DNA of 64,000 bases from assembly GCA_020279385.1 (NCBI GenBank), contig GCA_020279385.1_4762.2. The stretch is one strand, 5' to 3'. Position 1 is the first letter of the stretch; each line of letters starts with the position of its first letter. The DNA is from a phage. Below, in pieces: positions 17,249 through 51,218 of this stretch. A program made the position numbers and the translations under genes. The notes under the pieces were generated by a model. That model saw only the letters and a list, made by a program, of their open reading frames with translations. It ran no database searches and had not been told where the DNA came from.

Positions 17249-17255
17249 TAAGGTG

Positions 17256-18865: not shown

Positions 18866-18871
18866 TAATAA

Positions 18872-18896: not shown

Positions 18897-18909
18897 CGTT
18901 GGGGGTAAT

Positions 18910-19682: not shown

Positions 19683-20560
19683 TGCCGAAATGTGAAGTGA
19701 TTTTAACCGTTGGTTGTTCTGGGTCCGGTAAAACTACATGGGCTATGGAAACATGTAAAAGGTTTAGTAATTATCGTAATGTGAATCGTGATGACCTTCG
19801 TCTTATGTTGTTTGGTGTTGACTCACTTTTGAAATACAAATATACTAAGGAAAAGGAAAAGCTGGTAGAGTCTATTCAGAGAATGATTGCTCGCGAGACT
19901 CTATCACGCGGATTGAGTATCATTATCTCTGATACCAACCTGAAAGAAAAACATCGTGTATTCTACAAAGAACTTGCAAAAGAATTTAACGCGGTGTATA
20001 CTGAACAAGTGTTCAATGAACCGTTTGAGACACTAAAGAAACGTAATTTCTATCGCGGCGAGAAAGCAATTCCACTTTCTCATTTGCGTAACCAATTTTA
20101 TCTGATGCAGGAATATATGGGTCAAGAAGTATACAAACCGAATACTATGCTGCCAAAGGCAGTGATCTTTGATATTGATGGAACATTAGCGGATAAGGGC
20201 GGTCGTCATCCGTTTGACTGGACAAAGGTCAAAGAAGATAAACCACGTCAGCAAGTGGTCGAAATGCTTAAACTGTATCGTGATAATGGTTATCGTATCA
20301 TTACATGCTCAGGGCGTGAGGATGTTTGCGAAGAAGATACTCTGCAATGGTTGCGTGAACAGGGTATTGAACCTAGTGATCACTTTCAACGTGAAACTAA
20401 TGATCGTCGTCCTGATCATGAAGTGAAGAAAGAGATCTTCTTCTCTGAAATTGCACCGCGTTATCATGTTGTTTTGGCGGTAGATGACCGTGATCAAGTG
20501 GTTGACATGTACCGCGCAATTGGTGTAGAATGTTTTCAGGTTAACTACGGAGACTTTTAA
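19682..20560 (+). CDS. pseT: polynucleotide kinase / 3'-phosphatase
   Basis: 299 aa; Walker A GCSGSGKTTWA, NRDD, phosphatase DxDGT (IFDIDGTLA), SGRE, DDRDQVV, C-terminal GVECFQV..GDF as in T4 Pnk. Confidence 0.9.
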   Translation: MPKCEVILTVGCSGSGKTTWAMETCKRFSNYRNVNRDDLRLMLFGVDSLLKYKYTKEKEKLVESIQRMIARETLSRGLSIIISDTNLKEKHRVFYKELAKEFNAVYTEQVFNEPFETLKKRNFYRGEKAIPLSHLRNQFYLMQEYMGQEVYKPNTMLPKAVIFDIDGTLADKGGRHPFDWTKVKEDKPRQQVVEMLKLYRDNGYRIITCSGREDVCEEDTLQWLREQGIEPSDHFQRETNDRRPDHEVKKEIFFSEIAPRYHVVLAVDDRDQVVDMYRAIGVECFQVNYGDF

Positions 20561-20763
20561 TGTTTACCGATAAACTCAAGCAATTAGGCGAAGCACTTGC
20601 TAAACGTGGTTTTAATGTTGAAATTGAACCCGCACCAGTTAACCCGTTTAGCGATGAGCGTCGTAGTGTATATGTCATTATGAGCAATGGTCATGGCGTG
20701 AATACATTCAATGTAAAACAGTATAGCGACGGATCAGTAGAATACTTTCGCGTATACGGTTAA
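20560..20763 (+). CDS. hypothetical protein (67 aa)
   Basis: ATG overlaps pseT stop (TAATG). Confidence 0.45.
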   Translation: MFTDKLKQLGEALAKRGFNVEIEPAPVNPFSDERRSVYVIMSNGHGVNTFNVKQYSDGSVEYFRVYG

Positions 20764-20784
20764 TTAATATGTGAGGATTATATT

Positions 20785-21291
20785 ATGTTGTCACAAACTT
20801 ACATGCAGATCGCCTATCTGATCGCAAAGAACTCTAAATGTGTTTCGTGGAAGGTAGGCGCACTGATCGAAAAAGACGGGCGAATCATTTCTACTGGATT
20901 TAACGGAACTCCAGCAGGGCAAGTAAATTGTAGCTGTCATGCACATAAAAACGGTTGGCTGGATGATGACGGCAAAATGATCCCAGAAAAACGACCAGAG
21001 CATAGTGCATGGTCACAGAAAAACGAGATCCATGCTGAATTAAATGCTATTTTGTTTGCTGCCCGTAGCGGTGTATCGATTGAAGGCGCTAGTATGTGGT
21101 GTACTGCTTCACCGTGTCCAGATTGCGCTAAAGCAATTGCAAACAGTGGTATTAAACATCTATACTATTGCGATACATACGACCGAAATGGTGGGCGTGA
21201 TTGGGCTGATATTTTGGATAAAGCCGACATTACGGTTACGCGTATTCCAAAAGCATTATTGACTGATTTGAAGGGTATTGATAATGACTGA
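20785..21291 (+). CDS. cd: dCMP deaminase
   Basis: 168 aa; zinc-binding HAELNAI and PCPDCAKAI deaminase motifs. Confidence 0.85.
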   Translation: MLSQTYMQIAYLIAKNSKCVSWKVGALIEKDGRIISTGFNGTPAGQVNCSCHAHKNGWLDDDGKMIPEKRPEHSAWSQKNEIHAELNAILFAARSGVSIEGASMWCTASPCPDCAKAIANSGIKHLYYCDTYDRNGGRDWADILDKADITVTRIPKALLTDLKGIDND

Positions 21292-21598
21292 ACAAATTGA
21301 TAATATCGCACTTCGTGAAGCACTAAAGAAAATGCTTGCTGTAGGTACTCACTCTTTACAGTTTACTAAGAAAGATGGTACTGTCCGTGAGATGTTCGCC
21401 ACGCGAGATCCGGCACTGATGCCGTTTGAAACATACGAAAAGTGGTTAGTTCCTAATGTTGAAAAACCGCGTAAAGAATCAGAAACATCTTTGCCAGTAT
21501 ATGAAATTGCAGTTGAAGGTTTCCGTAGTTTTGGGCTTGATAGTCTGATTAATGTAGACGGGCTGACTCCAGCGCAGATCGTCGAAATTTATAAATAA
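21284..21598 (+). CDS. hypothetical protein (104 aa)
   Basis: ATG 21284 with RBS GAAGGG (track start 21278 is TTG). Confidence 0.5.
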   Translation: MTEQIDNIALREALKKMLAVGTHSLQFTKKDGTVREMFATRDPALMPFETYEKWLVPNVEKPRKESETSLPVYEIAVEGFRSFGLDSLINVDGLTPAQIVEIYK

Positions 21599-21640
21599 TT
21601 CATCATTAAACTGTATTGATTTGAAGAGGTAATAAAAATT

Positions 21641-21964
21641 ATGACCGTTAAAACTCCTAAAGCACTTGGTGATTATGTAATTATCGAAGCTAAAGCAGAA
21701 AGCGCAGGGACCGAAGTAAAAAGCTCTATGGGGATCATTATTGAGCAAAAGCGCACTATGGGTGAGATTCCGCTGGTAGGTAAGATTATTGATATTGGTG
21801 AAACGGTAGATAAAGAATTGCTGGGTAAAACTGTTCTACTGCCACACGGAAAGATGAATAAAGTTCCTCATCCAGACGTTATTAACGGCGTTAAGAAGGA
21901 AGAAGAGATCGACCTGAAATGGACTGTAACACACAAACAGAATATTGTGGTAGTTTACGGTTAA
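21641..21964 (+). CDS. 31: co-chaperonin gp31 (GroES analogue)
   Basis: 107 aa; position between cd and DNA ligase and GroES-like pattern (GDYVIIEA, mobile-loop-like SSMGIIIEQ, VPHPDV). Confidence 0.65.
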   Translation: MTVKTPKALGDYVIIEAKAESAGTEVKSSMGIIIEQKRTMGEIPLVGKIIDIGETVDKELLGKTVLLPHGKMNKVPHPDVINGVKKEEEIDLKWTVTHKQNIVVVYG

Positions 21965-21975
21965 TGATTTTAAAC

Positions 21976-22002
21976 GGCGGGATTATTTCCCGCCTATATT
22001 TT
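21976..22002 (+). terminator. rho-independent terminator
   Basis: GGCGGGA-TTATT-TCCCGCC hairpin followed by TATATTTTGG. Confidence 0.7.
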
Positions 22003-22046
22003 GGCTATATGATTTTGTAAGTTATTGATTATTAAGGAATTTTATT

Positions 22047-22211
22047 ATGAAAACTATGAATGTAAACATCCACGAAATCCATACCGAAGTATTCACCGAA
22101 GAAGACCAGTTTGGTGTATGGGTAAATCCTCATTCGATTACTATCGATATTCCTAATGACGATTATGATCCGTTCTCTCTGATTAGCGAGATTAGTTTCA
22201 ATGACTTCTGA
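22047..22211 (+). CDS. hypothetical small protein (54 aa)
   Basis: ATG 22047; acidic; below track cutoff. Confidence 0.35.
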   Translation: MKTMNVNIHEIHTEVFTEEDQFGVWVNPHSITIDIPNDDYDPFSLISEISFNDF

Positions 22212-22680
22212 AATTGATATCTATGCGGGTGGACCTTATCCATCTGGTGAATTGAGTAATTTCAATAAAAGACCATTCCGTCTATTTGGTTGCGATATTA
22301 ACAGCACAGAAGGATTTTTACAGGGGCTAAGATTTAAGAACCCTCAGAGACAAAGAGAAATCTTTTTGATGCACGGTGGCAAAGCAAAAAGAACCGGAAG
22401 AACTGAAAAGATTGAGAATCACATGTTATATTTTCAGGGTCGCCCGATTCATCGAATGAGTGAGCATTATTACAGACTGGTACATCTGGCATTTGTTACG
22501 ATGGCACGGAATAACCCAGAATTTTGTAAAGCATTACTCGCTACCGGAAATAAGAAATTACGTCATAGCATAGGTGGAACTGATCCGTTAAAGACTATAT
22601 TGACTGAATCGGAATTTTGTAGTATCCTCAATGATATTCGTGAACGTTTAACAAAACGAGGTGAAAATGTCAATTCTTAA
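22201..22680 (+). CDS. NADAR / YbiA-like domain protein (putative ADP-ribosyl- or N-glycoside hydrolase)
   Basis: 159 aa; ELSNF...F......STEGFLQGLRF resembles the YbiA/NADAR FSNF...TSEHYFQA.KF core; LLATG and GGTDP segments also align with YbiA-like proteins. Confidence 0.5.
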   Translation: MTSEIDIYAGGPYPSGELSNFNKRPFRLFGCDINSTEGFLQGLRFKNPQRQREIFLMHGGKAKRTGRTEKIENHMLYFQGRPIHRMSEHYYRLVHLAFVTMARNNPEFCKALLATGNKKLRHSIGGTDPLKTILTESEFCSILNDIRERLTKRGENVNS

Positions 22681-24163
22681 TATCATTAACCAGCTTGCAG
22701 CGACCGACAAAACATCGCTGAAAGAAAAGATTCTGAAAGAATCCGCGAGCAATGAAACGCTGAAAGAATGCTTTTATCTGGCATATTGCAAACAGGTTAC
22801 GTTTGGCGTAAAGAAATACGATAAACCATCGCGCTATTCGTCTGTATTGTCTTTATCCGGTGCATTACAGGTCTTTAAAAATAAACTTGCCACGCGTCAA
22901 GTAACTGGTAATGCAGCATTACAGCTAGTTACCGATACTCTGACTTGCTTGTCAGAGGATGATGCTAAAGTTGCAATGATGGTCCTGAATCGTGATCTGG
23001 AATGCGGTTGTTCCGCCACCACTGCAAACAAGGTATGGAAGAAACTGATCCCCCAGCAGCCGTGTCACCTTGCATCGTCATATTCTGATAAGGCTATTGC
23101 TAATATCAAGTATCCGGCGTATGCACAACTTAAAAGCGATGGTGCTCGTGGTATGGCTGATATTGACGGGGAAACATTAGCAATCTATACCCGTTCAGGT
23201 AATACCTATCAGGGACTTGATGATTTGTTTGCGGTTTTAGAGCGTCTACGAGGCCGTGGAATTGTTCTAGATGGCGAATTGGTATATATGCCTACCCTTT
23301 CGCAAACACCAGCGCAGAACTTCGTTGAGAGCGTTTATGATGGTACTCTGTCATGGATATTTGAAGAAGAGGAAATGCCATTAACGCCAGTAGCGGAAGC
23401 AGTAAAAGAATCCGTTGTTGCAGACCGTCAGACCGGAAATGGTATCCTCAACAAATCACTTAAAGGAACTATTCCAAAAGAAGAAGCCCAATGTATTGTT
23501 TATACTGTCTGGGATGTTATCGACCGTGATGTGTATTACGGAAACGAGAAAGCAACGAAGCAATATAAAGATCGATTCGAAGAACTAAAACAGATTGTTG
23601 AAGAACTTAACGATCCTCGTGTTCAGATAATCGAAAATACTGTAGTTAACAATATCGATGAAGCTCGCGAAGTATATCATCGCTATGTAAACATGGGCTT
23701 AGAAGGTATTATCCTTAAAAATTTACATGGTGTATTTGAAGATCGTCGCAGTAAAGATCAGGTTAAATTTAAAGAAGTGATTGACTTCGACGCTGAAATT
23801 GTTGATGTATATCCGCATAGTAAAGATCCTAATAAGGTAGGCGGTTTTACTGTCCGTAGTGCGTGCGGACGAATGATGACTAACACCGGATCGGGATTAA
23901 CCGACACCACAACCGAAAAAGGTGATGATGGTATTGAACGTGTAATTCCGTTCGATCGTCGAAATGAACTCGACCGAGAAATGTTATGGGCTGACCGTCA
24001 TAACCTGATTGGAAAAGTCATTGAGATGACATGCAACGGGTACATTCGCAGCAAATCACGTAAAGAAGATGAACCGGAGTTCTCTTTATTTCTCCCGATC
24101 ATCAAACGTATTCGCTACGACAAGACCACTGCAAATACAGTAAAAGAGGTATTCGATGTGTGA
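22667..24163 (+). CDS. 30: ATP-dependent DNA ligase
   Basis: ~498 aa; KSDGAR adenylation lysine motif, LDGELVY, NGILNKSLKGTIPKEEAQC, GLEGIILKN, KFKEVID, GGF; colinear with T4 DNA ligase; ATG 22667 after RBS GAGGTG. Confidence 0.9.
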   Translation: MSILNIINQLAATDKTSLKEKILKESASNETLKECFYLAYCKQVTFGVKKYDKPSRYSSVLSLSGALQVFKNKLATRQVTGNAALQLVTDTLTCLSEDDAKVAMMVLNRDLECGCSATTANKVWKKLIPQQPCHLASSYSDKAIANIKYPAYAQLKSDGARGMADIDGETLAIYTRSGNTYQGLDDLFAVLERLRGRGIVLDGELVYMPTLSQTPAQNFVESVYDGTLSWIFEEEEMPLTPVAEAVKESVVADRQTGNGILNKSLKGTIPKEEAQCIVYTVWDVIDRDVYYGNEKATKQYKDRFEELKQIVEELNDPRVQIIENTVVNNIDEAREVYHRYVNMGLEGIILKNLHGVFEDRRSKDQVKFKEVIDFDAEIVDVYPHSKDPNKVGGFTVRSACGRMMTNTGSGLTDTTTEKGDDGIERVIPFDRRNELDREMLWADRHNLIGKVIEMTCNGYIRSKSRKEDEPEFSLFLPIIKRIRYDKTTANTVKEVFDV

Positions 24164-24632
24164 TAATGAAGGGGCGAAAGCCCCTAAACCTAAAAAATTG
24201 TCAAAGAAAGAGCAACGCCAGATCCTGAAAATGAAATACGGTGGACGTTGTGCCTATTGTGGCGAGGAACTAGGGGATCGCTGGCACGCAGACCACATCA
24301 AACCAGTATTGCGACGCTCAAAAGTAGTCTATGATGAAAATGGACGAATTGCCCGTAATGATGATGGATCGTGGAAGTATAAGGTTGTAGGAATGCATAA
24401 ACCGGAACATGATATACTTGATAACATGAATCCGTCGTGTGTGCAATGCAATCTTTATAAAAGCTGTATGGGCTTAGAATACTGGCGTAAGTGTATACGC
24501 GAGAACTTCCAGAAATACATTCAGCGCAATATGGGGTTGCGAGCGGCTAAACGCTTTGGCTTACTGTCAATCCACGACCAGCCAGTAGAATTTTATTTCG
24601 AAAAGTATGAGCGCGAGCATCAAGAAAAATAA
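24156..24632 (+). CDS. HNH endonuclease
   Basis: 158 aa; CAYCGEELGDRWHADHIKPV...NMNPSCVQCNLYK HNH zinc-finger nuclease motif; start overlaps ligase stop. Confidence 0.75.
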   Translation: MCDNEGAKAPKPKKLSKKEQRQILKMKYGGRCAYCGEELGDRWHADHIKPVLRRSKVVYDENGRIARNDDGSWKYKVVGMHKPEHDILDNMNPSCVQCNLYKSCMGLEYWRKCIRENFQKYIQRNMGLRAAKRFGLLSIHDQPVEFYFEKYEREHQEK

Positions 24633-24645
24633 TTCAAAAAAGTTG

Positions 24646-24674
24646 TTGACAGGGGATCACCGATCCCCTATACT
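24646..24674 (+). promoter_or_regulatory. PeSL-like promoter cassette (TTGACA-17-TATACT)
   Basis: Palindromic spacer GGGGATCACCGATCCCC; leader acacataccgaaacgaactaggagaatcaa. Confidence 0.7.
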
Positions 24675-24708
24675 ACACACATACCGAAACGAACTAGGAG
24701 AATCAATT

Positions 24709-24888
24709 ATGAACTTCAACGAAATCATCGCTAAAATCCGCTACAACGAAGAAACCATTGAACTGATGCAAAACAATATCACCAATGGTTATATGATTGC
24801 AGCGTCACAAGAAATCATTGATTTGACGGTAGCAGAAAATGCTCAGTTGAAACATCAACTTTCAACGGCTGGCGTGATTGTTATGTAA
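24709..24888 (+). CDS. hypothetical small protein (59 aa)
   Basis: ATG 24709 after cassette leader; track start 24607 precedes the promoter. Confidence 0.45.
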   Translation: MNFNEIIAKIRYNEETIELMQNNITNGYMIAASQEIIDLTVAENAQLKHQLSTAGVIVM

Positions 24889-24905
24889 TAAAGAGAGGTG
24901 ACTAA

Positions 24906-25208
24906 ATGGCAAAAGTTAAGGTAGGCGAGGTCTTCAAAATGGAAGACCACACCGTGGAAGAGATGAAAGGCGCAGTATTGAAAGTAACTAATTCAATGTG
25001 TCGTAGTGTGCTTTACATCAACTTTATAGACGGTGATGTGTGGTGGGCTAGCGATAGCGATAAATGGGATATCAAGTTCTACAAAGGTCATACTCACTGG
25101 TTAGGAACAGAGGATGTTGTAGAAGTTCTGGCGGTTGATGTTATGCCAGGCGAGATCGAAAGTCTTAGCGGAACCGCAAAAGAAGCATTGACACGCCATT
25201 TTGTGTGA
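24906..25208 (+). CDS. small protein, HxHW-LAVDV paralog family member
   Basis: 100 aa; C-terminal KGHTHWLGTEDVVEVLAVDV motif shared with five neighbouring ORFs. Confidence 0.5.
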   Translation: MAKVKVGEVFKMEDHTVEEMKGAVLKVTNSMCRSVLYINFIDGDVWWASDSDKWDIKFYKGHTHWLGTEDVVEVLAVDVMPGEIESLSGTAKEALTRHFV

Positions 25209-25214
25209 TATAAT
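25188..25214 (+). promoter_or_regulatory. possible sigma70-like promoter (TTGACA-15-TATAAT)
   Basis: TTGACA 25188-25193, TATAAT 25209-25214; short spacer, followed by hairpin GGGAG...CTCCC. Confidence 0.35.
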
Positions 25215-25265
25215 ATAACAATCATTGGGAGGGGTAATACTCTCCCACAAATTGAGGATAATATT

Positions 25266-25457
25266 ATGTGTGGTCTTAAAATGGTTGCTGAATATAAGCG
25301 AACTGGTAATATTATTATGTATCGACGCAATGCCAACGAAGACTGGAAACCTTCCAACCGCATTAAATCCATCCAGACGTTTATGAATAACATCAAAGAA
25401 AACCTTTTCGTTAAGCGTGTTGGCGCTGAACATTGGGAAGTTTACGAAGCTGTATAA
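25266..25457 (+). CDS. hypothetical small protein (63 aa)
   Basis: RBS GAGGA + ATG. Confidence 0.45.
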   Translation: MCGLKMVAEYKRTGNIIMYRRNANEDWKPSNRIKSIQTFMNNIKENLFVKRVGAEHWEVYEAV

Positions 25458-25473
25458 TTTTGAGGAAAATATT

Positions 25474-25776
25474 ATGGAACGTACCAATTTGTTTGTAACC
25501 GAACCTTTCGTTGAAGGAAACAAGAACCTTGCTAATACGGTTATTCTTTACGAAGATTGGATCTTTTACATCGATGAGAATTTAGATGTATATTGTCGTC
25601 CAACCCCAAATGACTCATTCTATATCGAAGAAAACGATACCCATAATCATTGGTATGACGGAAACGACGAAACCGATCTTGCTATTGTTCTCGAATCCGG
25701 CGTAGAATCGGAACATGCCGATGAAGTAGCAGACAAATTTATGAAATACGCATATAAAGATAAAGTTGAAGAATAA
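25474..25776 (+). CDS. small protein, HxHW paralog family member
   Basis: 100 aa; WIFYIDENLDVY and THNHWYDG...LAIVLE motifs; ATG 25474 (track start 25417 is inside previous gene). Confidence 0.5.
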   Translation: MERTNLFVTEPFVEGNKNLANTVILYEDWIFYIDENLDVYCRPTPNDSFYIEENDTHNHWYDGNDETDLAIVLESGVESEHADEVADKFMKYAYKDKVEE

Positions 25777-25784
25777 AAAAGTTG

Positions 25785-25813
25785 TTGACAGGGGATCGGT
25801 GATCCCCTATAAT
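25785..25813 (+). promoter_or_regulatory. PeSL-like promoter cassette (TTGACA-17-TATAAT)
   Basis: Palindromic spacer GGGGATCGGTGATCCCC; near-identical to cassettes at 29045 and 31421. Confidence 0.75.
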
Positions 25814-25846
25814 GCACACATACCAACGAGATATAGGAGAATCAAA

Positions 25847-26014
25847 ATGTTCCAGACTAAAGCAGAATGCGAAGCATACATTGTAGCAAACCACGGTGAA
25901 GACTACCTGAAATTCGATATCGTAGTAGCACAGAAGATCACCGGAATGGTTGCAAAATATCTAGGTGTTAAAGAAGGTTACTATCCAAGCAACGCACCAG
26001 AAATTAACAAATAA
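25847..26014 (+). CDS. hypothetical small protein (55 aa), paralog of the 29107 ORF
   Basis: MFQTKAECEAYIVANHGEDYLKFDIVVAQK... about 85% identical to the 29107 product. Confidence 0.5.
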   Translation: MFQTKAECEAYIVANHGEDYLKFDIVVAQKITGMVAKYLGVKEGYYPSNAPEINK

Positions 26015-26017
26015 TAG

Positions 26018-26046
26018 TTGACAATGATTAAAGGGAGTAGTAAGAT
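26018..26046 (+). promoter_or_regulatory. PeSL-like promoter cassette (TTGACA-17-TAAGAT)
   Basis: Hairpin GGGAGTA...TACTCCC spans -10; leader catcaagacaacaaacggagaatcaaa. Confidence 0.6.
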
Positions 26047-26078
26047 ACTCCCATCAAGACAACAAACGGAGAATCAAA

Positions 26079-26258
26079 ATGAAAGCTATCGAAGTTCAGA
26101 AGTACATGGAACTCATCATTGAAGGTAAAGCACATACAGTATTGACTACCAACGTAGGATATGATAAAAATGTGCATATGCTGGTAGACAATATCGGCTG
26201 GATGAAGTTTAATCCTAATGAGAATGTACAAGCTCAAGAAATGACCATCCCTTTCTAA
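26079..26258 (+). CDS. hypothetical small protein (59 aa)
   Basis: ATG after cassette leader; below track cutoff. Confidence 0.4.
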   Translation: MKAIEVQKYMELIIEGKAHTVLTTNVGYDKNVHMLVDNIGWMKFNPNENVQAQEMTIPF

Positions 26259-26270
26259 GAGGAATATATT

Positions 26271-26549
26271 ATGATGCGAATTACTGCAACGCTGGATAAG
26301 ACACACAAAGAAAGATTTTTCGGTATGATCTTAAAAACGCCGATTTTCGATAATTACCTTTATGTTGACTATGAAGGCCATATTAGCTATAAATGTAAAA
26401 ATGATATTCGTGATTCCTTTGGTGATAAATCACAAGCTGATATTCACGATCATTGGTGGACCTTCGACGAACCTTTACGGATTATCGCAGTTGATGTAAA
26501 AACAATAAAAGAAGCTGATAAGGTAGTTAACGATTATGAGCAAATTTAA
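26271..26549 (+). CDS. small protein, HxHW-LAVDV paralog family member
   Basis: 92 aa; YLYVDYEGHISY and IHDHWWTFDEPLRIIAVDV. Confidence 0.5.
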   Translation: MMRITATLDKTHKERFFGMILKTPIFDNYLYVDYEGHISYKCKNDIRDSFGDKSQADIHDHWWTFDEPLRIIAVDVKTIKEADKVVNDYEQI

Positions 26550-26745
26550 AGACTATAAAGCATATCAACAGATCCTGCGAGTATACGCACCAGAGTTCGC
26601 CGAAAAGATGATGGAAGATGCATCAAAATGCCCGTCCTTTTCTGGAAACAAAAACCATTATTCGACTGGTATTGTGTCATGGAAAGAAACCGCATATACT
26701 CAACAATGGATAGATGTGTTTTCAAAAACTCTTGAGTGGTGTTAA
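26536..26745 (+). CDS. hypothetical small protein (69 aa), tandem paralog A
   Basis: MSKFKDYKAYQ... shares N-terminus and Cys/Trp pattern with next ORF. Confidence 0.5.
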   Translation: MSKFKDYKAYQQILRVYAPEFAEKMMEDASKCPSFSGNKNHYSTGIVSWKETAYTQQWIDVFSKTLEWC

Positions 26746-26747
26746 TT

Positions 26748-26963
26748 ATGAGCAAATTTAAAGATTATCGAGCATATAAAGCGATCTGCGATATATTCGA
26801 TGAAAAGACCGCTCATGAAATGATGGAAGATGCAGAACAATATGAATCATTCGTCAATTCCAAAGATTGCACAGTAAACGGGATTGTGTGCTGGAAAGAT
26901 ACAAAGTATGAAGAAAAATGGATTACCGTGTATTACGGAGAACTAGAATATGAAATTAACTAA
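26748..26963 (+). CDS. hypothetical small protein (71 aa), tandem paralog B
   Basis: MSKFKDYRAYK...; ATG 26748. Confidence 0.5.
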   Translation: MSKFKDYRAYKAICDIFDEKTAHEMMEDAEQYESFVNSKDCTVNGIVCWKDTKYEEKWITVYYGELEYEIN

Positions 26964-27270
26964 AAAGATTTTCCCAGAATTGCGTAACTGTCTGTTATTG
27001 GTTACTGAATATAAGCCGTATACGATCTACTTGTATGTTGATGAAAATCTGAAAATCCGTTACTATGATTATACGTCTCCAGTGATGAAATCATTTGCTC
27101 ACTCGATAGCAAATAACTGTATGAATCACAATCATTGGGTATCAGAAACGGATGACGATGCGTCAGAAGTTGTAGTGGTTGCATGGAATCTATCACCAGC
27201 GGAAGCAGATCAAGCACGCATTAAGCATTATGCGAAAAACAATTGGTTTGACCTTATAAGTGAGGACTAA
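26950..27270 (+). CDS. small protein, HxHW paralog family member
   Basis: 106 aa; IYLYVDENLKIRYYDY and NHNHWVSE...VVVVAWN. Confidence 0.5.
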   Translation: MKLTKKIFPELRNCLLLVTEYKPYTIYLYVDENLKIRYYDYTSPVMKSFAHSIANNCMNHNHWVSETDDDASEVVVVAWNLSPAEADQARIKHYAKNNWFDLISED

Positions 27271-27274
27271 TATT

Positions 27275-27553
27275 ATGTTCAAAGTAGGTGATAAGTTTAT
27301 TCTTAGTCGTGATATTCTCCCTAATCTGAAAGGTTGTATCATCAATCCTAGTAAAAATTCATGGTTTTATCTGTTTATCGACGACAAACTGAATGTACGC
27401 GCAGAATATAAAGAAGGTCTTCGTACTGGTCTAGGTTTCTTTCACGATCATGATCATAGCCATTGGTTAAACGGTGGATTCGAAGCAACGGTGCTAGCGG
27501 TTGACGTGACCTACACAAACATCATAGAAAAATATCAAAAAATTATTTTATAA
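27275..27553 (+). CDS. small protein, HxHW-LAVDV paralog family member
   Basis: 92 aa; WFYLFIDDKLNV and HDHSHWLNGGFEATVLAVDV; ATG 27275 with RBS GTGAGGA. Confidence 0.5.
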   Translation: MFKVGDKFILSRDILPNLKGCIINPSKNSWFYLFIDDKLNVRAEYKEGLRTGLGFFHDHDHSHWLNGGFEATVLAVDVTYTNIIEKYQKIIL

Positions 27554-27559
27554 AAAGTG

Positions 27560-27588
27560 TTGACACCGGATCGGGGATATAGCATAAT
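27560..27588 (+). promoter_or_regulatory. PeSL-like promoter cassette (TTGACA-17-CATAAT)
   Basis: Hairpin GGGGATAT...ATATCCCC spans -10; leader catcgaaacgagataca...aggagaatcaaa. Confidence 0.7.
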
Positions 27589-27634
27589 ATCCCCATCGAA
27601 ACGAGATACACTTTCTAACTAGGAGAATCAAATT

Positions 27635-27922
27635 ATGGCATACATTACTATCACTCTGAAAGTTAACAAATTTGCTCACGCTGCACACGAAACAGACAAT
27701 GCAATCCGTAACAACAAGTTCGCACGTCTGGTACGCGATGCAGTAGCTAAAGAGTTCAACTTCAAATTTGCAGACGGTAAAGTTATCACTAAATGGACTC
27801 ATGACGGAGAAACTAAAGTAGAACTTGCTGATAACTTCGCAAATCAGGAATATGCACACCGTCGCATTAATGAAATTATCAGCGATGAACTCTACTACGG
27901 TGTACAGGAAGGACTGTTTTAA
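27635..27922 (+). CDS. hypothetical protein (95 aa)
   Basis: ATG after cassette. Confidence 0.5.
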   Translation: MAYITITLKVNKFAHAAHETDNAIRNNKFARLVRDAVAKEFNFKFADGKVITKWTHDGETKVELADNFANQEYAHRRINEIISDELYYGVQEGLF

Positions 27923-27927
27923 TATAC

Positions 27928-27952
27928 GGGGCGTTAAGCCCCACCCCTTTTC
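27928..27952 (+). terminator. rho-independent terminator
   Basis: GGGGC-GTTAA-GCCCC hairpin then ACCCCTTTTCAT; same hairpin recurs at 31705. Confidence 0.65.
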
Positions 27953-27975
27953 ATCCAACTATTGAGGATAATACT

Positions 27976-28284
27976 ATGAAAGATAATATCTTTGAATTTA
28001 CCCGCGAAAATCTCCCAATGTTCCGAAAGTCTCTGCTTAAACTAGAGAACAGCAATTACAACGTATATTTTTACATCACCGAAGACCTAGAGATCCTTTA
28101 CGCAGATTATCCAGGTCCGATCCGTACCTTCGAAGAAGCATCGCAGTATAAAAATGTTCACGGTCATGAGCACTGGTTACGAGAAAACCCAGGTCGCAAG
28201 AAAGCACGCGTTAAAGTGTTGGCGATTGACATAACACCAGCATACGCCGACCGGATTGCACTGAATGATTATTTGTCTAAATGA
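27976..28284 (+). CDS. small protein, HxHW-LAxD paralog family member
   Basis: 102 aa; VYFYITEDLEILYADY and HGHEHWL...KVLAIDI. Confidence 0.5.
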   Translation: MKDNIFEFTRENLPMFRKSLLKLENSNYNVYFYITEDLEILYADYPGPIRTFEEASQYKNVHGHEHWLRENPGRKKARVKVLAIDITPAYADRIALNDYLSK

Positions 28285-28292
28285 TTTCATTA

Positions 28293-28320
28293 GCCGACCT
28301 TAGTGTCGGCTTTTTTATTT
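28293..28320 (+). terminator. rho-independent terminator
   Basis: GCCGAC-CTTAGT-GTCGGC hairpin followed by TTTTTTATTT. Confidence 0.8.
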
Positions 28321-28339
28321 CCAAAAATTAAAAAAGTTG

Positions 28340-28368
28340 TTGACACCTGATCACGCCTATAGCACAAT
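28340..28368 (+). promoter_or_regulatory. PeSL-like promoter cassette (TTGACA-17-CACAAT)
   Basis: Same architecture and leader (acacatcgaaacgagataccacttaggagaatcaaa); -10 slightly degenerate. Confidence 0.55.
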
Positions 28369-28408
28369 ACACACATCGAAACGAGATACCACTTAGGAGA
28401 ATCAAACA

Positions 28409-28678
28409 ATGGCACTGACTAAAACCACTACCAACTTTGCAAAACGTCACGGCTTCGACCTTGAAATCAATAGCTTTAACGATTACACCCTTCTGTGTGT
28501 ATATGAAATCGAAAATGATTGCGAGTGGATGTTCAGCTATCGCGTAAACGAAGACGGATCTTTCACTTGGAACGGAAATATCTATCTTGCACAGGAAGTA
28601 AAAGAAGAACTTCCGGCGACTATCAAAGATGAGAAACATTTACGTCAAGTTTTAAAATTTATTTCTGAAAATATCTAA
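28409..28678 (+). CDS. hypothetical protein (89 aa)
   Basis: ATG after cassette. Confidence 0.5.
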   Translation: MALTKTTTNFAKRHGFDLEINSFNDYTLLCVYEIENDCEWMFSYRVNEDGSFTWNGNIYLAQEVKEELPATIKDEKHLRQVLKFISENI

Positions 28679-28686
28679 AAAAGTTG

Positions 28687-28715
28687 TTGACACCAAAGTA
28701 AGAACATAGCATAAT
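28687..28715 (+). promoter_or_regulatory. PeSL-like promoter cassette (TTGACA-17-CATAAT)
   Basis: Leader acacataccgaaacgaactggagaatcaaa. Confidence 0.65.
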
Positions 28716-28748
28716 ACACACATACCGAAACGAACTGGAGAATCAAAA

Positions 28749-29030
28749 ATGAAATTCATCAAAGCAACCGAAATCCTGAAAAACAAAGAAGCATACATCG
28801 GAAACATCGTTGGTATGAACATTCGCGGCGCTGGTAGCCAGTGGACCAAACTGGTTGATGTTAAAGCTAAAGGCGATAAAATTGAGTTCACTGTAAAAAT
28901 GCTTACTCATAACGCACATATGGGTATCAAGACAAAAACGATGGCCGCAGATAAAAGCATCAACTATCAAGATCTGGGCGATTGGTTGAACTGGTGCAAA
29001 ATGCACAACATCGAAACTAATCACGAATAA
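28749..29030 (+). CDS. hypothetical protein (93 aa)
   Basis: ATG after cassette. Confidence 0.5.
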   Translation: MKFIKATEILKNKEAYIGNIVGMNIRGAGSQWTKLVDVKAKGDKIEFTVKMLTHNAHMGIKTKTMAADKSINYQDLGDWLNWCKMHNIETNHE

Positions 29031-29044
29031 TTTTAAAAAAGTTG

Positions 29045-29073
29045 TTGACGGGGATCGGGAGATCCCCTATAAT
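29045..29073 (+). promoter_or_regulatory. PeSL-like promoter cassette (TTGACG-17-TATAAT)
   Basis: Palindromic spacer GGGATCGGGAGATCCCC; copy of the 25785 cassette. Confidence 0.7.
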
Positions 29074-29106
29074 ACACACATAACGAAACGAAATAGGAGA
29101 ATCAAA

Positions 29107-29274
29107 ATGTTCGAGACTAAAGCAGCATGTGAAGCATATATCATTGAAACCCACGGCGAAGATTATCTGAAATTTGACATTGTAGTAGCACAGAAGATTG
29201 TAGGGATGGTTGCGAAATACCTCGGAGTTAAAGAAGGTTACTATCCTAGCAACGCACCAGAAATTAACAAATAA
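29107..29274 (+). CDS. hypothetical small protein (55 aa), paralog of the 25847 ORF
   Basis: MFETKAACEAYIIETHGEDYLKFDIVVAQK...; below track cutoff. Confidence 0.5.
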   Translation: MFETKAACEAYIIETHGEDYLKFDIVVAQKIVGMVAKYLGVKEGYYPSNAPEINK

Positions 29275-29288
29275 TTTTATAAAAAGTG

Positions 29289-29317
29289 TTGACAGGGGAG
29301 GATAACTCCCCTACAAT
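29289..29317 (+). promoter_or_regulatory. PeSL-like promoter cassette (TTGACA-17-TACAAT)
   Basis: Palindromic spacer GGGGAGGATAACTCCCC; leader caaccatcaagacgagataccacttaggagaatcaaa. Confidence 0.65.
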
Positions 29318-29357
29318 ACAACCATCAAGACGAGATACCACTTAGGAGAATCAAACA

Positions 29358-29609
29358 ATGGCTAACATCGAAACCGCAAAGAAAATCGCTAAAGACCTGA
29401 ACGTTAAAGGCTTCCGTAAACTGAAATTACAGCGTGTACGCTACACCATCGGCAAACAGTGCTCTTTCATGAGCGAAGAAGTTGCTAACAGCCTCATTGA
29501 TAACCTGATTGCGGCTGGCTGGGAAGTTGCGGATCTGAAAACTTGCCGCGAACTGGCTAACAAAGGTCTTTTAGATTCTGTTACTATCAAACCAATGGGG
29601 GCAGCGTGA
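29358..29609 (+). CDS. hypothetical protein (83 aa)
   Basis: Starts MANIE, sharing its first 16 nt with the 31486 ORF. Confidence 0.5.
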   Translation: MANIETAKKIAKDLNVKGFRKLKLQRVRYTIGKQCSFMSEEVANSLIDNLIAAGWEVADLKTCRELANKGLLDSVTIKPMGAA

Positions 29610-47200: not shown

Positions 47201-47211
47201 TGAAATCTATC

Positions 47212-47240
47212 AGCCATCCTTCGGGGTGGCTTTTTTGTTT
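47212..47240 (+). terminator. rho-independent terminator after hoc
   Basis: GCCATCC-TTCG-GGGTGGC hairpin followed by TTTTTTGTTTTT. Confidence 0.75.
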
Positions 47241-47247: not shown

Positions 47248-47275
47248 TTGACAGAGCGATTTAGATGCCTATAAT
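47248..47275 (+). promoter_or_regulatory. sigma70-type promoter (TTGACA-16-TATAAT)
   Basis: TTGACA 47248-47253, TATAAT 47270-47275. Confidence 0.6.
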
Positions 47276-47600: not shown

Positions 47601-47875
47601 TGGACAAGAAAACAGCGTTAATGGTTTACATGCTACGCGAAGACCACGGTCTTAATTTTGTTGATATTGCTAAGAAGATTGGCGGTATCAGCGGACAAGA
47701 TGCGGCTAAGGCATGGTTGATGGTAAAAGATGCACGCGAGGCTTACGCCAACCGTGAAAAGGTTGTTTATCGTAAACACCACATCAACAAAAAATTTAAA
47801 AATAAAGTTCAAAAACGTGTTGACAAGCCAAATAACACTGTTATAATGGACGCATTCAAACGGGCAATGTCCTGA
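47600..47875 (+). CDS. hypothetical basic protein (91 aa)
   Basis: ATG 47600 overlapping previous stop (ATGA). Confidence 0.4.
   Translation: MDKKTALMVYMLREDHGLNFVDIAKKIGGISGQDAAKAWLMVKDAREAYANREKVVYRKHHINKKFKNKVQKRVDKPNNTVIMDAFKRAMS
47820..47847 (+). promoter_or_regulatory. sigma70-type promoter (TTGACA-16-TATAAT) inside 3' end of preceding ORF
   Basis: TTGACA 47820-47825, TATAAT 47842-47847. Confidence 0.55.
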
Positions 47876-47921
47876 TTTGTAATTAATATTCTGAATAACT
47901 AATCAATAGAGGTGACTAATT

Positions 47922-48359
47922 ATGAAATTCCGTAAAAACCACGTAGCAATGAAAAAGGCAATGTTCGAAGCATTCAAAGCAGTTGATCAGGGCGGTGTTA
48001 CTCTGATTGAGCAAATTAATGTTGATGTTTGGCAATCTCCGGCGATCACCTGCTCCCGTCTTGCTACGGCTGGCCTTCTGAAAGTTCACAGCTCTACCGC
48101 ATACGACGAAGCATTGCAAGTTATTAAGGCTTTTGCTGGAGACGTTACCAGCAAGTGGGTCTATGAGAATAAAGGTGAAATTGCGGTTGCTCACGTAGGC
48201 AACAATATCCAGATGGAAATCAAGATTAAGGAAGGGTCTAAACGCAATCAGATGCTTGTTCGCTTCCAGCCATACAAAACTAACGTAGTGCCGGATGATC
48301 TGATCATCTCTAAGAGTAATGTTACCATTCGCCGAAATCAGATCGTTATCAACAAATAA
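47922..48359 (+). CDS. hypothetical protein (145 aa)
   Basis: RBS AGAGGTG + ATG. Confidence 0.5.
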   Translation: MKFRKNHVAMKKAMFEAFKAVDQGGVTLIEQINVDVWQSPAITCSRLATAGLLKVHSSTAYDEALQVIKAFAGDVTSKWVYENKGEIAVAHVGNNIQMEIKIKEGSKRNQMLVRFQPYKTNVVPDDLIISKSNVTIRRNQIVINK

Positions 48360-48368
48360 TTAACATTA

Positions 48369-48393
48369 GCCGTCCTTCTGGGCGGCTTTTTTG
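48369..48393 (+). terminator. rho-independent terminator
   Basis: GCCGTCC-TTCT-GGGCGGC hairpin followed by TTTTTTG. Confidence 0.75.
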
Positions 48394-48773
48394 TATCTGT
48401 TATTAACATAATTTTAGTTTACATGTGCACAATATTAATACTGTTTGATTAAATTATGATCAAAACGAAGAAAGATCTTTAGAACATAGAAAATGTATCT
48501 TTGGTTAATTATTAATCACTACATATTGTAACACAAATGTTATACTCCGTAGGAGTTCGCGAAGCGATATCCTTTTGTGTAGTTTTTACATGTATGATTA
48601 AATTATGATCAAAACGAAGACTTATCTTATAGAATAATAAAAATTTGTTTCGAACATTTATTAATCAATTACTGGAAGTGTTTTTATTGCTCGCTGTGCT
48701 CGCTTCCGCTACGCGGATACTTGTATTTGTTATTAACTTGTAGTATGATATTGCTTTCTATGGAGGAAATATT
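48394..48773. repeat. AT-rich noncoding region with imperfect direct repeats
   Basis: TTGTAT(C/T)TGTTATTAAC at 48391 and 48721; TTACATGT..TGATTAAATTATGATCAAAACGAAGA at ~48420-48475 and ~48585-48620. Confidence 0.6.
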
Positions 48774-49361
48774 ATGTTTGACCAGTTACAAGATCTATTT
48801 GGAGTAAAACCACTTCGTAGATGTGCTTTAATAGGCTCTAGAAAAGCGCCTAGCGACATTTTGATAATGGCTAGTACCATTGGGAGGGTATTGTCAGAAA
48901 ATCGCGTTGTAGCGCATTCTGGAGGGGCTTACGGTATGGACAATGCTTTCATGAAGTATTACGATCCAGATTATAGAAAAATTTTCATTCCAAATTGGAA
49001 GTTTTATGACCACAAGCATAACGGTCATGATGTTATTGCATGGCAAACATTAGAACAAAAAAATCTGGCGATGGATGAATTAGAACATGTTTATGATAAT
49101 CCTCGTTCTATACCGTTATACATGCAAAATCTGTTTTCTAGAAATGTTGCTCAAGTCTTAGGTGAGACACTTGATGATCCTGTAGATTGTGTGATATTCT
49201 GGGCGAAAGAAGTTAATGGAATCGTTTCGGGAGGAACTAGAATTGCTGTTTATGTTGCCCGTAGACATGGGATACCATGTTTTAACTTATATCATCAAGA
49301 AAATAGATCCGCCGTCGAAAAAATCTTGGGCGGATCTGACTTGTCTTGGTTAGATATTTAG
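48774..49361 (+). CDS. DprA/SLOG-like Rossmann-fold protein (putative)
   Basis: 195 aa; CALIGSRKAPSD...MASTIGRVLSENRVVAHSGGAYGMDNAF resembles the DprA/Smf GSR...SGGARGID core. Confidence 0.4.
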   Translation: MFDQLQDLFGVKPLRRCALIGSRKAPSDILIMASTIGRVLSENRVVAHSGGAYGMDNAFMKYYDPDYRKIFIPNWKFYDHKHNGHDVIAWQTLEQKNLAMDELEHVYDNPRSIPLYMQNLFSRNVAQVLGETLDDPVDCVIFWAKEVNGIVSGGTRIAVYVARRHGIPCFNLYHQENRSAVEKILGGSDLSWLDI

Positions 49362-50603
49362 TTAAGCGTTGTCAATCTCAAGCGGTGGCAGTTCGATTCC
49401 TAAAATGTAGGACATTTCTGAACGTCCAGCCATTTTACCCCAATCGTCACCCTTGATGACCTGGTGTTCTTCCTGATCAACTTTTGATGTGTATGGGTTG
49501 ACAGAGAGTGAATAACGATTCATAATAGCTACATGATGCTGGAAGCTATTGGGGTCAATTACACTCTTATACGCGCCAGCGCCGTCGGCTTCTGTATATG
49601 GGGAGTAGAACAGAGAACCTACACTCTCCATATCACCGATCATGTGCTTACAACCAACGAGCATATAATCGAAAGGTGTTGTCGTGTCTGCGTACACTTC
49701 CAGACCGCAACGTAGACGACCTTCGCTTAGAGCATTGTCGGTTTCTTCCATCCAACCGGAAGATTGCAGGAGGCCAACCACGCGAGAAGACGCCAAAACG
49801 TATGTACCAGCAAAGGAGGAAGTCCGCAACATTTGATTGCTCATTTCGCAAGCATAGCGGTAAAGTTCACGCGCTTGTGCTGGTGCATCCTGAACGCTAA
49901 CGAGAGAAAGTACGCCGTCAGGGGTGATCCCTTTAATTTTATAGCGAGATGATACAGTGATCAACTTCTGAATAATATCTTTGTTGATCTCTTCGGAAGC
50001 GATCGTAGCCAGAAGATCAATTACAGAGTTTTCAGAGTTGATTTGGCTTGCCTCAAGATCCTGCATCAATTCGGTCGTGAATGAGGTTTTCAGTTTACGA
50101 GAACCTACATTAACCTGCCATTTATCAAACTGCATAGAGGTAGACGAAATTTCGGTGTTTTTATCTTCAAAGTATTCTACCGATGCACAATCGCTATAGA
50201 AACGAATTTTGTTTGTCATTACGCCTTTAAAGATTGCGGCTTCTGGAGTTTCGGCATCTTCACCGACTGTACCAGCGGTCACAACTTCGTATACAACATC
50301 GCCTGATTTGAATAGTGCGCCTTCGTCATAAGATTTTTCTTTTGAAAACTCTTCAATCTCTGTGCGATCACCAGCCGCGCCACCGTAGGTTGTAGCAGTT
50401 CGGAAAGTCATCTGACCATCACGATTAAGATAACGTAGTCCGTACAATGCAGATACTGGTTGATCCGTTGGCTGGATTGCTACCAGATCAGAGAAAATCA
50501 GGTTGTTTACCGCGCGAGTTAATGATAATAGTTGCGGTCGCGCTGTCTGGTTAGCTACTGAGGAAGTAGATTCCCGCAACAGTTCAGTAAAAATATGAGT
50601 CAT
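49362..50603 (-). CDS. 24: head vertex protein gp24
   Basis: Start set at ATG 50601-50603 (MTHIFTELLRES... parallels T4 gp24 MAKINELLREST); ATTYGGAAG, KWQVNVGSRKLKT, SNPYT motifs. Confidence 0.85.
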   Translation of the reverse strand: MTHIFTELLRESTSSVANQTARPQLLSLTRAVNNLIFSDLVAIQPTDQPVSALYGLRYLNRDGQMTFRTATTYGGAAGDRTEIEEFSKEKSYDEGALFKSGDVVYEVVTAGTVGEDAETPEAAIFKGVMTNKIRFYSDCASVEYFEDKNTEISSTSMQFDKWQVNVGSRKLKTSFTTELMQDLEASQINSENSVIDLLATIASEEINKDIIQKLITVSSRYKIKGITPDGVLSLVSVQDAPAQARELYRYACEMSNQMLRTSSFAGTYVLASSRVVGLLQSSGWMEETDNALSEGRLRCGLEVYADTTTPFDYMLVGCKHMIGDMESVGSLFYSPYTEADGAGAYKSVIDPNSFQHHVAIMNRYSLSVNPYTSKVDQEEHQVIKGDDWGKMAGRSEMSYILGIELPPLEIDNA

Positions 50604-50649: not shown

Positions 50650-50677
50650 AAAAAGAAAAAGGAATCCGAAGGATTCC
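50650..50677 (-). terminator. rho-independent terminator between gene 23 region and gene 24
   Basis: Minus-strand hairpin GGAATCC-TTCG-GATTCC followed by TTTTTCTTTTT. Confidence 0.7.
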
Positions 50678-50840: not shown

Positions 50841-51105
50841 GCATTTCCTCCTTATGGAGAATTTGGGGTTAATTCAGGGAACAGCGTACCAAAACCAAAA
50901 TTACCGCTAGCGTCACGCTGAAATGTCATAACAAGGCAGATCTGTATATCTACCAAATCTATCCGACCTAATATCAACATGAACGCTCATTTCATTCATT
51001 GGTCCTTTGCCATGCAGTTACTACGAAAATTTGTGGAATTGTTTGTTGTGTGTATCTATTTTCGCTCCCAATAGAATATAGGCTTGCAACCCTATTTATA
51101 TACGC

Positions 51106-51134
51106 AAAAAGGGAAGACCCTTTCGAGTCTTCCC
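51106..51134 (-). terminator. rho-independent terminator after gene 23
   Basis: Minus-strand hairpin GGGAAGAC..GTCTTCCC followed by TTTTT. Confidence 0.7.
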
Positions 51135-51218
51135 TTTGGAATTAACACTTTACACTGTCATAAGGTTTATGATAAGTCGGGCATTGCACCCGACAGGAGT
51201 TTTCAGGAATGGCTTATA

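Follow-up and report, generated by a model that had tools for sequence, protein, structure and literature searches.

The 64,000-nucleotide stretch of phage DNA analyzed here (the window) represents a Krischvirus genome, that is, an RB49-like, T4-type coliphage, and this work concerns a gene-free spacer within it (48360-48773) that separates the homologues of RB49 ORF165 and ORF164. Following RB49 naming, the local gene order is hoc, ORF167, gp24.3 (DUF2774), ORF165, the spacer and ORF164, followed by gene 24 converging on the opposite strand. The upstream neighbor ORF165 (47922-48359, plus strand; 145 amino acids, aa) belongs to phrog_15652, a family of unknown function, and matches no Pfam or NCBIfam family. 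The downstream neighbor ORF164 (48774-49361, plus strand) encodes a single-domain, 195-aa protein with a predicted SLOG/DprA fold, and its ATG at 48774 is preceded by the Shine-Dalgarno sequence GGAGG (48762-48766, plus strand; read from the sequence). A first-pass annotation had placed an AT-rich non-coding region of 380 bp upstream of a DprA/SLOG-like gene, which was borne out by a slightly longer interval of 414 bp with a G+C content of 0.30. Its claim that no credible open reading frame (ORF) is present held as well: the only ORF inside the spacer is a hydrophobic 32-aa TTG-ORF (48645-48743), rejected as a peptide because it contains a stop codon in the related lineage L009 and has no Shine-Dalgarno sequence. 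The 1.5 kb around the spacer is 99% identical to RB49, phi1, JSE, GEC-3S and ~55 other Krischvirus genomes. Judged by sequence comparison, the spacer is a conserved composite non-coding element, and it is probably a functional control element.

The left end of the spacer is occupied by T0, the intrinsic terminator of the ORF165 cassette (48368-48387, plus strand; AGCCGTCC-TTCT-GGGCGGCT plus a T-run), which the GEC-3S and Makalu records label as a terminator. With eight pairs, six of them G-C, it agrees with the strong terminator called previously. ORF165 is preceded by a consensus early promoter (47820-47847, plus strand; TTGACA-16-TATAAT with TG; 12/12 matches; 14.4 bits), and since it has its own promoter upstream and T0 at its end, ORF165 forms a one-gene promoter-terminator cassette. 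The consensus early promoter TTGACA-16-TATAAT is also found at 47248-47275, just past the hoc terminator (47209-47238), whose stem closely resembles that of T0.

Two sets of direct repeats lie to the right of T0. The 17-mer TTGTAT(C/T)TGTTATTAAC starts at 48391 and again at 48721, 330 bp further on; with up to three mismatches allowed, just two more weak matches were found in 64 kb, and four matches were reached in 0 of 100 shuffles. The 26-mer TGATTAAATTATGATCAAAACGAAGA has two exact copies, at 48446 and 48595 (expected 0.00). It is embedded in a longer direct repeat of 78 nt, whose copies (48442-48518 and 48591-48667) are 149 bp apart and 78% identical (E 1.5e-10 by blastn searched against the window). 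Within this repeat the 26-mer is identical between copies although the flanks have diverged. Both 17-mers and the two copies of a ~45 bp unit had been noted in the first-pass annotation; the latter repeat proved to be longer, and neither the 17-mer pair nor the 26-mer pair is expected by chance.

The second conspicuous class of features comprises three small G+C hairpins, each with a loop that reads G-N-A on one of the two strands. Hairpin A (48544-48556, ACTCC-GTA-GGAGT) is immediately followed by hairpin B (48557-48567, TCGC-GAA-GCGA), which contains the mini-hairpin motif GCGAAGC, whereas hairpin C (48705-48717, TCCGC-TAC-GCGGA) shows its GTA loop on the minus strand. Hairpins of the form C-GNA-G with a stem of at least 4 bp number three in the 414-bp spacer compared with an expected 0.057, and the maximum in 300 shuffles was one. 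Hairpin C lies directly upstream of the -35 element of P3, the candidate promoter of the SLOG gene (48721-48749, plus strand; TTGTAT-17-TATGAT; 8/12 matches), which includes the second 17-mer copy (48721-48737). The first copy (48391-48407, plus strand) consists of a -35-like TTGTAT plus the palindrome TGTTATTAACA, has no usable -10 element in a position weight matrix (PWM) scan, and looks like the left counterpart of the promoter region at 48721. Each copy amounts to a -35 element plus the first 11 spacer bases, the first adjoining T0 and the second hairpin C, so the units between them are bracketed by two similar hairpin-plus-(-35) joints. A like pairing is seen in L009 (TTGTTTCTGGATTGTTATCA versus TTGTTTTTGATATTATCA).

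To find relatives of the locus, the ORF165 and ORF164 proteins served as queries, and the contigs of their matches (metagenomes and IMG/VR) were then looked up. At least eight further lineages were recovered (L009, L025, L032, L026/L043, L027/L028, L044, L030 and L045), plus the near-identical L031, and their flanking proteins range from 93% down to 48% identity with those of the window. A metagenome scan with the SLOG alignment returned close relatives only. In every relative contig long enough for both genes, the ORF165 homologue and the SLOG gene are separated by a gene-free spacer of ~330-575 bp whose parts come in a shared order: T0, the units, two small G+C hairpins after the first unit, the G+C block GCTCGCTnTGCTCGC, hairpin C, a sigma-70-like promoter, a Shine-Dalgarno sequence and the ATG. 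Two units are present, except in L043, which has three. Because the repeats are significant and conserved in these distant relatives, a functional non-coding element is supported. Two relatives are notable at the T0 border. In the mosaic L031 (2029-2693, compared with window 47922-48590), ORF165 DNA is 83% and the adjoining spacer 97% identical, which places a recombination joint at this border, and the metagenomic relative L033 (3496-4310) has an insertion between the ORF165 stop codon and T0 that comprises a 197-aa DUF723/HNH-like gene of homing-endonuclease type and a 73-aa ORF.

Alignment of 13 units defined four blocks: B1 (TATTAATTATACT), B2 (TG.TTAAA..AT.ATCAAA(CG)), B3 (TCTTATA) and B4 (TTTGG.TAAT.ATTAATCAC). 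In the window, the core of unit 1 (48442-48518, plus strand) contains B2 (TGATTAAATTATGATCA, 48446-48462), the 26-mer (48446-48471), an AT-rich middle with TCTTTAGA, and the B4 palindrome (TGGTTAATTATTAATCA, 48502-48518). The core of unit 2 (48591-48667, plus strand) contains B2 (48595-48611), the 26-mer (48595-48620) and only the right half of B4 (48651-48667). A left arm, TTACATGT, is present in both copies, and in copy 1 it is separated from the 26-mer by ~19 extra bases that correspond to the conserved block B1 of relatives, which is missing from copy 2. B4 is a 17-bp palindrome (TGRTTAAT-W-ATTAAYCA) that is perfect in L027. On average, 6.36 of its 8 pairs are symmetric, compared with 2.89 +/- 0.34 when 17-mers are shuffled. 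B2 shares its outer half-sites with B4 and has a mean of 4.71 symmetric pairs (shuffled, 2.63 +/- 0.30). Since a single central base rules out a useful hairpin, B4 and the related boxes may instead be sites for a dimeric DNA-binding protein. Downstream of unit 2 lies the conserved G+C block GCTCGCTGTGCTCGC (48689-48703, plus strand), for which no hairpin is possible in the window; it is also present in L009, L025, L027 and L044, and in L043 it takes the form of a GCGAGC-TTTT-GCTCGC hairpin. Overall spacer identity to L009 and L025 is 64-67%, compared with 83-86% for the flanking genes. B2, B4, the hairpins, the G+C block and P3 persist even where flanking-gene DNA is ~65% identical; for example, B2 of the window (TTGATTAAATTATGATCAAAACG) differs little from that of L027 (TTGATTAAAATATGATCAAACG).

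Several other accounts of the unit were tried and rejected. A mini-ORF beginning MIKTK inside B2 loses its start codon in L045 (ACG) and in the E. coli prophage described below (ATC), and has no Shine-Dalgarno sequence. An apparent long hairpin, as structured RNA or DNA, arises from the TGATTAA/TTAATCA shared by B2 and B4; its energetic significance is limited to L027, L030 and the third unit of L043, its z-score is ~0 in window unit 1, L009, L025, L032 and L044, and RNAalifold returned no consensus structure for the units (-0.36 kcal/mol). A dispersed repeat or miniature inverted-repeat transposable element was also dismissed, as the B4 palindrome has no other good match and the unit no second locus in the 64-kb window. 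The extra match places seen per Krischvirus record were attributed to the internal repeat and the hoc terminator (checked in the fetched loci only), and no target duplications around the element were evident by eye.

The small hairpins showed compensated change across lineages. For hairpin C, 92.9% of cells were paired and four of six pairs were doubly changed, with a covariation score of 0.603 compared with 0.123 after shuffling. Similar values were obtained for hairpin B (85.7% paired; 0.495 versus 0.167) and hairpin A (88.9% paired; 0.422 versus 0.133). In none of 500 shuffles was the observed score or percentage paired matched for any of the three, and slid controls collapsed. One-sided (G-U) changes were found in 0 of 113 cells, meaning that substitutions were always fully compensated. 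This was unlike T0, where all cells were paired across lineages and U-G, read on the plus strand, was the commonest pair at one position (three of five lineages). Three lineages have the G-N-A loop of hairpin C on the plus strand and another three have it on the minus strand, so that one strand or the other carries it in 6 of 7. The absence of G-U changes and the strand flip of the hairpin C loop suggest that hairpins A-C are under selection on both strands, which fits bidirectional transcription blocks or hairpins acting at the DNA level. A further GAA-loop hairpin, with a 7-bp stem (GGAATCC-GAA-GGATTCC), lies at 50661-50677 just upstream of gene 24, at or beside an annotated terminator of GEC-3S.

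P3 keeps its position 1-4 nt past hairpin C in every lineage, and it is weak, at 6.0 bits compared with 13-14.4 bits for the true early promoters of the window. Most relatives additionally carry, within the unit, a minus-strand sigma-70 promoter (TTGATN-16/17-TATAAT; PWM scan) that runs against the direction of the flanking genes. Such promoters scored 7-11 bits in L026, units 1 and 2 of L032, unit 2 of L025, unit 1 of L027, L035, and units 1 and 2 of L009. Their -35 element TTGATN is the reverse of the ATCAA in B2 and their -10 element TATAAT the reverse of B1, and the palindromic boxes overlap promoter-like sites in these relatives. In the window itself the unit promoters are degenerate: the -10 element of unit 1 reads TATTAA, and unit 2 has no B1. 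Plus-strand promoters were seen in some lineages, namely TTGACA-17-TGTAAT twice in L009, where a GAAC/GTTC stem lies within the promoter spacer, and TTGAAC-17-TATAAT in L030. L009 also has an extra ~160-nt leader (2290-2440) between the conserved promoter and the SLOG start, with a long hairpin (GATACCCTAAAA ... TTTTAGAGGGTAT) and no Rfam family at gathering score. The late promoter sequence TATAAATA is absent from the spacer.

The unit is not confined to T4-type phages. A sensitive search of 5,426 complete E. coli genomes showed that 53 contain a 76-bp stretch with 80-82% identity to the unit, and in prophage L046 (4001-4076) it is 82% identical to unit 1 and 78% to unit 2. There, it lies within a 1.27-kb gene-free region (3885-5150; NZ_CP028733.1 2553383-2554648), also present in L048-L067, located between a TerS-like gene and the large terminase gene, with neighbors that match no family. 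With a strict pattern, the prophage element was found once each in 20 prophage-sized IMG/VR contigs and was almost invariant, and no GTDB species genome contained a match. The proteins encoded around the prophage unit have no relative in the 64-kb window. The order in the prophage is a small G+C hairpin, the unit directly adjoining it, two GAA-loop hairpins, a stretch like the window's post-unit-2 block and more G-N-A hairpins, followed by an intrinsic terminator (4321-4333; TAC loop, as in hairpin C), 6-7 iterons of TAGTGTAGGTTT (4464-4586, ~450 bp from the unit) and a B4-type palindrome near 4992-5009. The region also has a repeated CAAAAATTTTGATAG, 149 bp apart. It matched no Rfam family, no plasmid and, among isolated phages, none other than Krischvirus.

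The protein encoded downstream had been described as DprA/Smf-like, which stood at the level of the fold only. It matched PHROG 768 (E 1e-60) and carries the GSR...SGGAxGxD motif of the SLOG superfamily. An AlphaFold 2 model (predicted local distance difference test score 83.5) retrieved H. pylori DprA with Foldseek (E 4e-6; template modeling score 0.54), in addition to a Moco carrier (1e-4), LOG (3e-4) and ShosA (3e-4). A bona fide DprA was rejected, as the protein scored below cut-off for both PF02481 (22.3 versus 29.6 bits) and TIGR00732 (14.4 versus 191 bits), with only residues 15-60 matching; overall, the model is that of a single-domain SLOG/DprA-fold protein. Weak matches to PsyrA and ShosA were obtained with the PADLOC defence-system library. 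Both are toxic effectors, and for this reason tight control of the SLOG gene would make sense. In other T4-like genera, i.e., a Karamvirus (L037, 1506-3055), Klebsiella phage Roth16 (L038, 1491-3046) and a Pseudotevenvirus (L039, 1438-3055), the SLOG gene overlaps the stop codon of rnlB beside gene 24, which suggests that rnlB (RNA ligase 2) and the SLOG gene form a functional pair. The RB49 lineage has the SLOG gene without rnlB at this locus, with ORF165 and the spacer in its place. In T4, the interval from gene 24 to hoc contains rnlB, 24.2 and 24.3; no origin is annotated there, and oriF is located at uvsY.

Existing annotation of the spacer is sparse. Nothing except the left-end terminator was annotated in the five records opened, and the labels beneath the match in 59 Krischvirus listings were coding sequence, terminator, ribosome-binding site and BREX-site only. 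Apart from the five, a few records list a "hypothetical protein" beneath the match, and one feature in MW748999.1 (vB_EcoM_Skers) is labelled "putative RNA ligase". Judged by what other records contain there, this is probably the SLOG gene, and the label then looks like a carry-over from the rnlB neighbor of other genera, not evidence of a ligase. No tRNA or tmRNA was found across the window, and the best Rfam 15 match to the spacer (21.6 bits; cut-off 95) covered the T0 terminator only. A literature search found no usable Krischvirus transcriptome. The window contains a second long gene-poor stretch (50841-51218, between gene 23 and the small ORF162) that has no sequence similarity to the spacer.

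Promoter-early stem-loop (PeSL) elements have been described flanking ORFs in RB49 and phi1 (Arbiol et al. 2010, PMC2839356; Comeau et al. 2014, PMC4122927), and the reading we favor, tentatively, is that the spacer is a DNA-level regulatory and insulating cassette related to these promoter-terminator elements. The PeSL yardstick within the window was its hyperplastic region (9500-29400), where at least 28 plus-strand promoters have 10-12/12 consensus matches and several adjoin G-run/C-run hairpins (e.g., 11614-11629 and 24170-24185) in the classic PeSL pattern. The spacer resembles PeSLs in occurring in the same phage group, in combining a sigma-70-type promoter and an adjacent stem-loop in AT-rich intergenic DNA, in lying directly upstream of an accessory ORF (in the order P3, GGAGG, ATG 48774), in having paired copies that flank a cassette (the 17-mers), and in a border that serves as a modular exchange site (the L031 joint at T0 and the L033 HNH-type insertion). 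Conversely, real PeSL promoters are near-perfect TTGACA-N17-TATAAT, which P3 (8/12, 6.0 bits) is not, and the stronger unit promoters of relatives (7-11 bits) lie on the opposite strand. PeSL stems are of the type G(n)-loop-C(n), while those of the spacer, hairpin C included, are of mixed sequence with G-N-A loops; the flanking copies enclose no ORF but two non-coding units with palindromic boxes; and the units are conserved well beyond the RB49/phi1 pair and into a prophage.

In such a cassette, T0 would stop the very strong early transcription of ORF165, and hairpins A, B and C could block transcription arriving from either side, as selection on both strands would allow. The palindromic boxes would bind a putative dimeric DNA-binding factor, and the leftward sigma-70 promoters of relatives, which overlap the boxes, may work against read-through through collision or promoter occlusion. 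For the SLOG gene, expression would depend on P3, its own weak promoter, with boxes and opposing promoters modulating the transcription that passes through. In the window lineage the leftward promoters have decayed, and boxes and hairpins have been retained. This reading draws on the layout kept in eight lineages, the alignment of B1-B4 over 13 units, the compensated hairpins, the position of P3 and the strong ORF165 promoter. Of the three functions offered in the first-pass annotation, a regulatory binding array fits best, with palindromic boxes and, in relatives, overlapping promoter-like sites in its support.

Several observations weigh against a regulatory and insulating role. No protein binding the boxes was identified; gp24.3 (DUF2774) was considered speculatively and set aside, as it gave no informative match to solved structures. 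The unit promoters are weak or absent in the window, the 6 bits of P3 are common by chance in AT-rich DNA, and a promoter scan of 47800-49500 found four sites compared with 6.2 in shuffles, i.e., no excess. For a lytic T4-type phage, it would be unusual to devote 330 bp of elaborate control sequence to a single small accessory gene, and in other T4-like genera simple coupling to rnlB suffices to express the SLOG gene. The main weakness is the presence of the unit in an unrelated prophage without a nearby SLOG gene, which argues that its function is not tied to this gene. Because of this sharing, explanations based on an origin or priming signal and on a non-coding RNA (ncRNA) or decoy stay alive.

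A more novel explanation, rather unlikely in our judgment, is that the 76-bp unit and the G-N-A mini-hairpins make up a self-contained, horizontally exchanged non-coding module that engages the same host or replication machinery in a lytic T4-type lineage and in temperate E. coli prophages, either as a new origin or priming signal or as a decoy site or RNA.

A replication origin or priming element appears unlikely, too. Here, the AT-rich units would unwind, the promoter present in relatives would supply a transcript that primes or forms an R-loop, in the manner of T4 oriF/oriG or the T7 primary origin, and the very stable mini-hairpins would act as priming or loading signals on displaced single-stranded DNA (ssDNA). 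Like the spacer, those origins have promoters without an obvious gene beside AT-rich DNA; the "orphan" promoters of relatives aim at no gene, and the unit cores are AT-rich (spacer G+C 0.30). The T7 promoters 1.1A and 1.1B stand in tandem, a likeness to the tandem units. As with oriF/oriG, a non-coding element lies in a late/early gene boundary region of a T4-type genome. The occurrence of the unit in unrelated phages of one host, in the prophage ~450 bp from an iteron array, also counts in favor of this explanation. However, the map position is not equivalent to that of oriF, which rejects T4 oriE/oriF by position, no origin being annotated in the fetched T4 interval; moreover, the candidate promoters are decayed in 59 of 59 isolated Krischvirus genomes, there is no GATC excess, and the prophage region matched no plasmid. 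The lack of an iteron array, of a recognized initiator gene and of conserved DnaA or IHF sites, set out below, counts against an origin as well. The RB49 lineage is not known to have T4-type middle promoters.

Part of the case for priming comes from the hairpins. Change by Watson-Crick double substitution only is as expected for pairing in DNA or on both strands, and the strand flip of the hairpin C loop agrees with this. GCGNAGC and CCGAAGG are DNA mini-hairpin motifs, and GCGAAGC and CCGAAGG have been reported at phage G4-type and plasmid RSF1010 ssiA priming sites (Hirao review, PMC13037366). Several such hairpins are clustered in the spacer: GCGAAGC is part of hairpin B, most relatives have CCGAAGG as hairpin A (CCGTAGG in the window), and hairpin C is GCGNAGC on either strand in the 6 of 7 lineages. 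In contrast, the known signals act on ssDNA of phages or plasmids with host primase or RepB', the motifs occur elsewhere in the window at about chance frequency (9 versus 5.7), and G+C hairpins with GAA loops occupy other intergenic spots of the genome as well, such as 50661-50677. We know of no ssi-type priming step in T4-type phages.

An iteron-like origin in the classical sense, the first of the previously suggested functions, was not supported. Comparable to the iteron origins of lambda, P1 and plasmids, the spacer has direct, partly palindromic, protein-binding-like boxes in AT-rich non-coding DNA, and its prophage homologue lies near a true iteron array. However, the spacer itself has no iteron array but 2-3 long units (76-150 bp; two in the window) instead of at least four short phased repeats. 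No initiator gene was recognized at the locus (Pfam, PHROGs and NCBIfam), where ORF165 and neighboring small ORFs match no family or families of unknown function. Likewise, there is no DnaA or IHF site conserved across lineages, and no T4 origin is annotated between gene 24 and hoc.

It is more doubtful that the spacer encodes one or more ncRNAs, with unit 1 through hairpins A/B and unit 2 through hairpin C as their approximate extents, whose role would be to regulate or to act as a decoy for a host factor or defence system. In L009, a hairpin with T-rich sequence behind it lies 45-65 nt downstream of each of the two TTGACA-17-TGTAAT promoters (9.1 bits), and a 35-nt non-hairpin stretch before hairpin C (...AGAAG..TTT..GCTCGCTnTGCTCGC) is kept in the most distant lineages, like a seed region beside a terminator. 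In the prophage, the intrinsic terminator at 4321-4333 closes a comparable stretch of ~330 nt that starts with the unit. A bare non-coding unit common to unrelated phages is typical of self-contained RNA genes, a point in favor of this explanation. On the other hand, no Rfam family was matched even up to an E-value of 10, including in the spacers of five relatives, the window's own spacer has no strong promoter, and neither hairpin B nor hairpin C is directly followed by a U-run. The lack of G-U intermediates is unusual for RNA helices, and the long unit hairpin, with significance confined to a few lineages and a consensus energy close to zero, argues against a structured RNA. Of the small RNA locus proposed earlier, an unstructured or short transcript is the form that could still apply.

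Least probable is non-functional debris, i.e., the duplicated, decaying remains of promoter-terminator cassettes or of a gene since lost (rnlB, for example), kept only because T4-type genomes tolerate them, which would accommodate the position of rnlB in other T4-like genera exactly where the RB49 lineage has ORF165 and the spacer, the lower identity of the spacer to L009 and L025 than of its flanking genes, the decayed window promoters and the variable unit number (2-3), but which is hard to reconcile with compensated hairpin changes, with parts that survive at ~65% flanking-gene DNA identity, with a 26-mer kept identical between diverged flanks and with a unit 82% identical in an unrelated prophage family and almost invariant over 20 contigs. 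A decayed rnlB or neighboring gene was rejected directly, as tblastn and blastn found no trace of one (all E >0.1).

Few viruses are annotated as well as the T4-type phages, yet the terminator is the only annotated feature of this spacer in the five records opened. Its layout is kept although flanking proteins are down to about half identical, and its core unit is found in E. coli prophages that share no gene with the window. If the spacer is a regulator and insulator, the PeSL concept would no longer cover simple promoter-terminator joints only but would include multi-part non-coding cassettes that carry operator-like boxes. If it instead provides an origin, priming or decoy function, it would be the first mapped element of such a kind in RB49-like phages, several of which are therapy candidates, and would also be an example of the exchange of a non-coding module between lytic and temperate phages.

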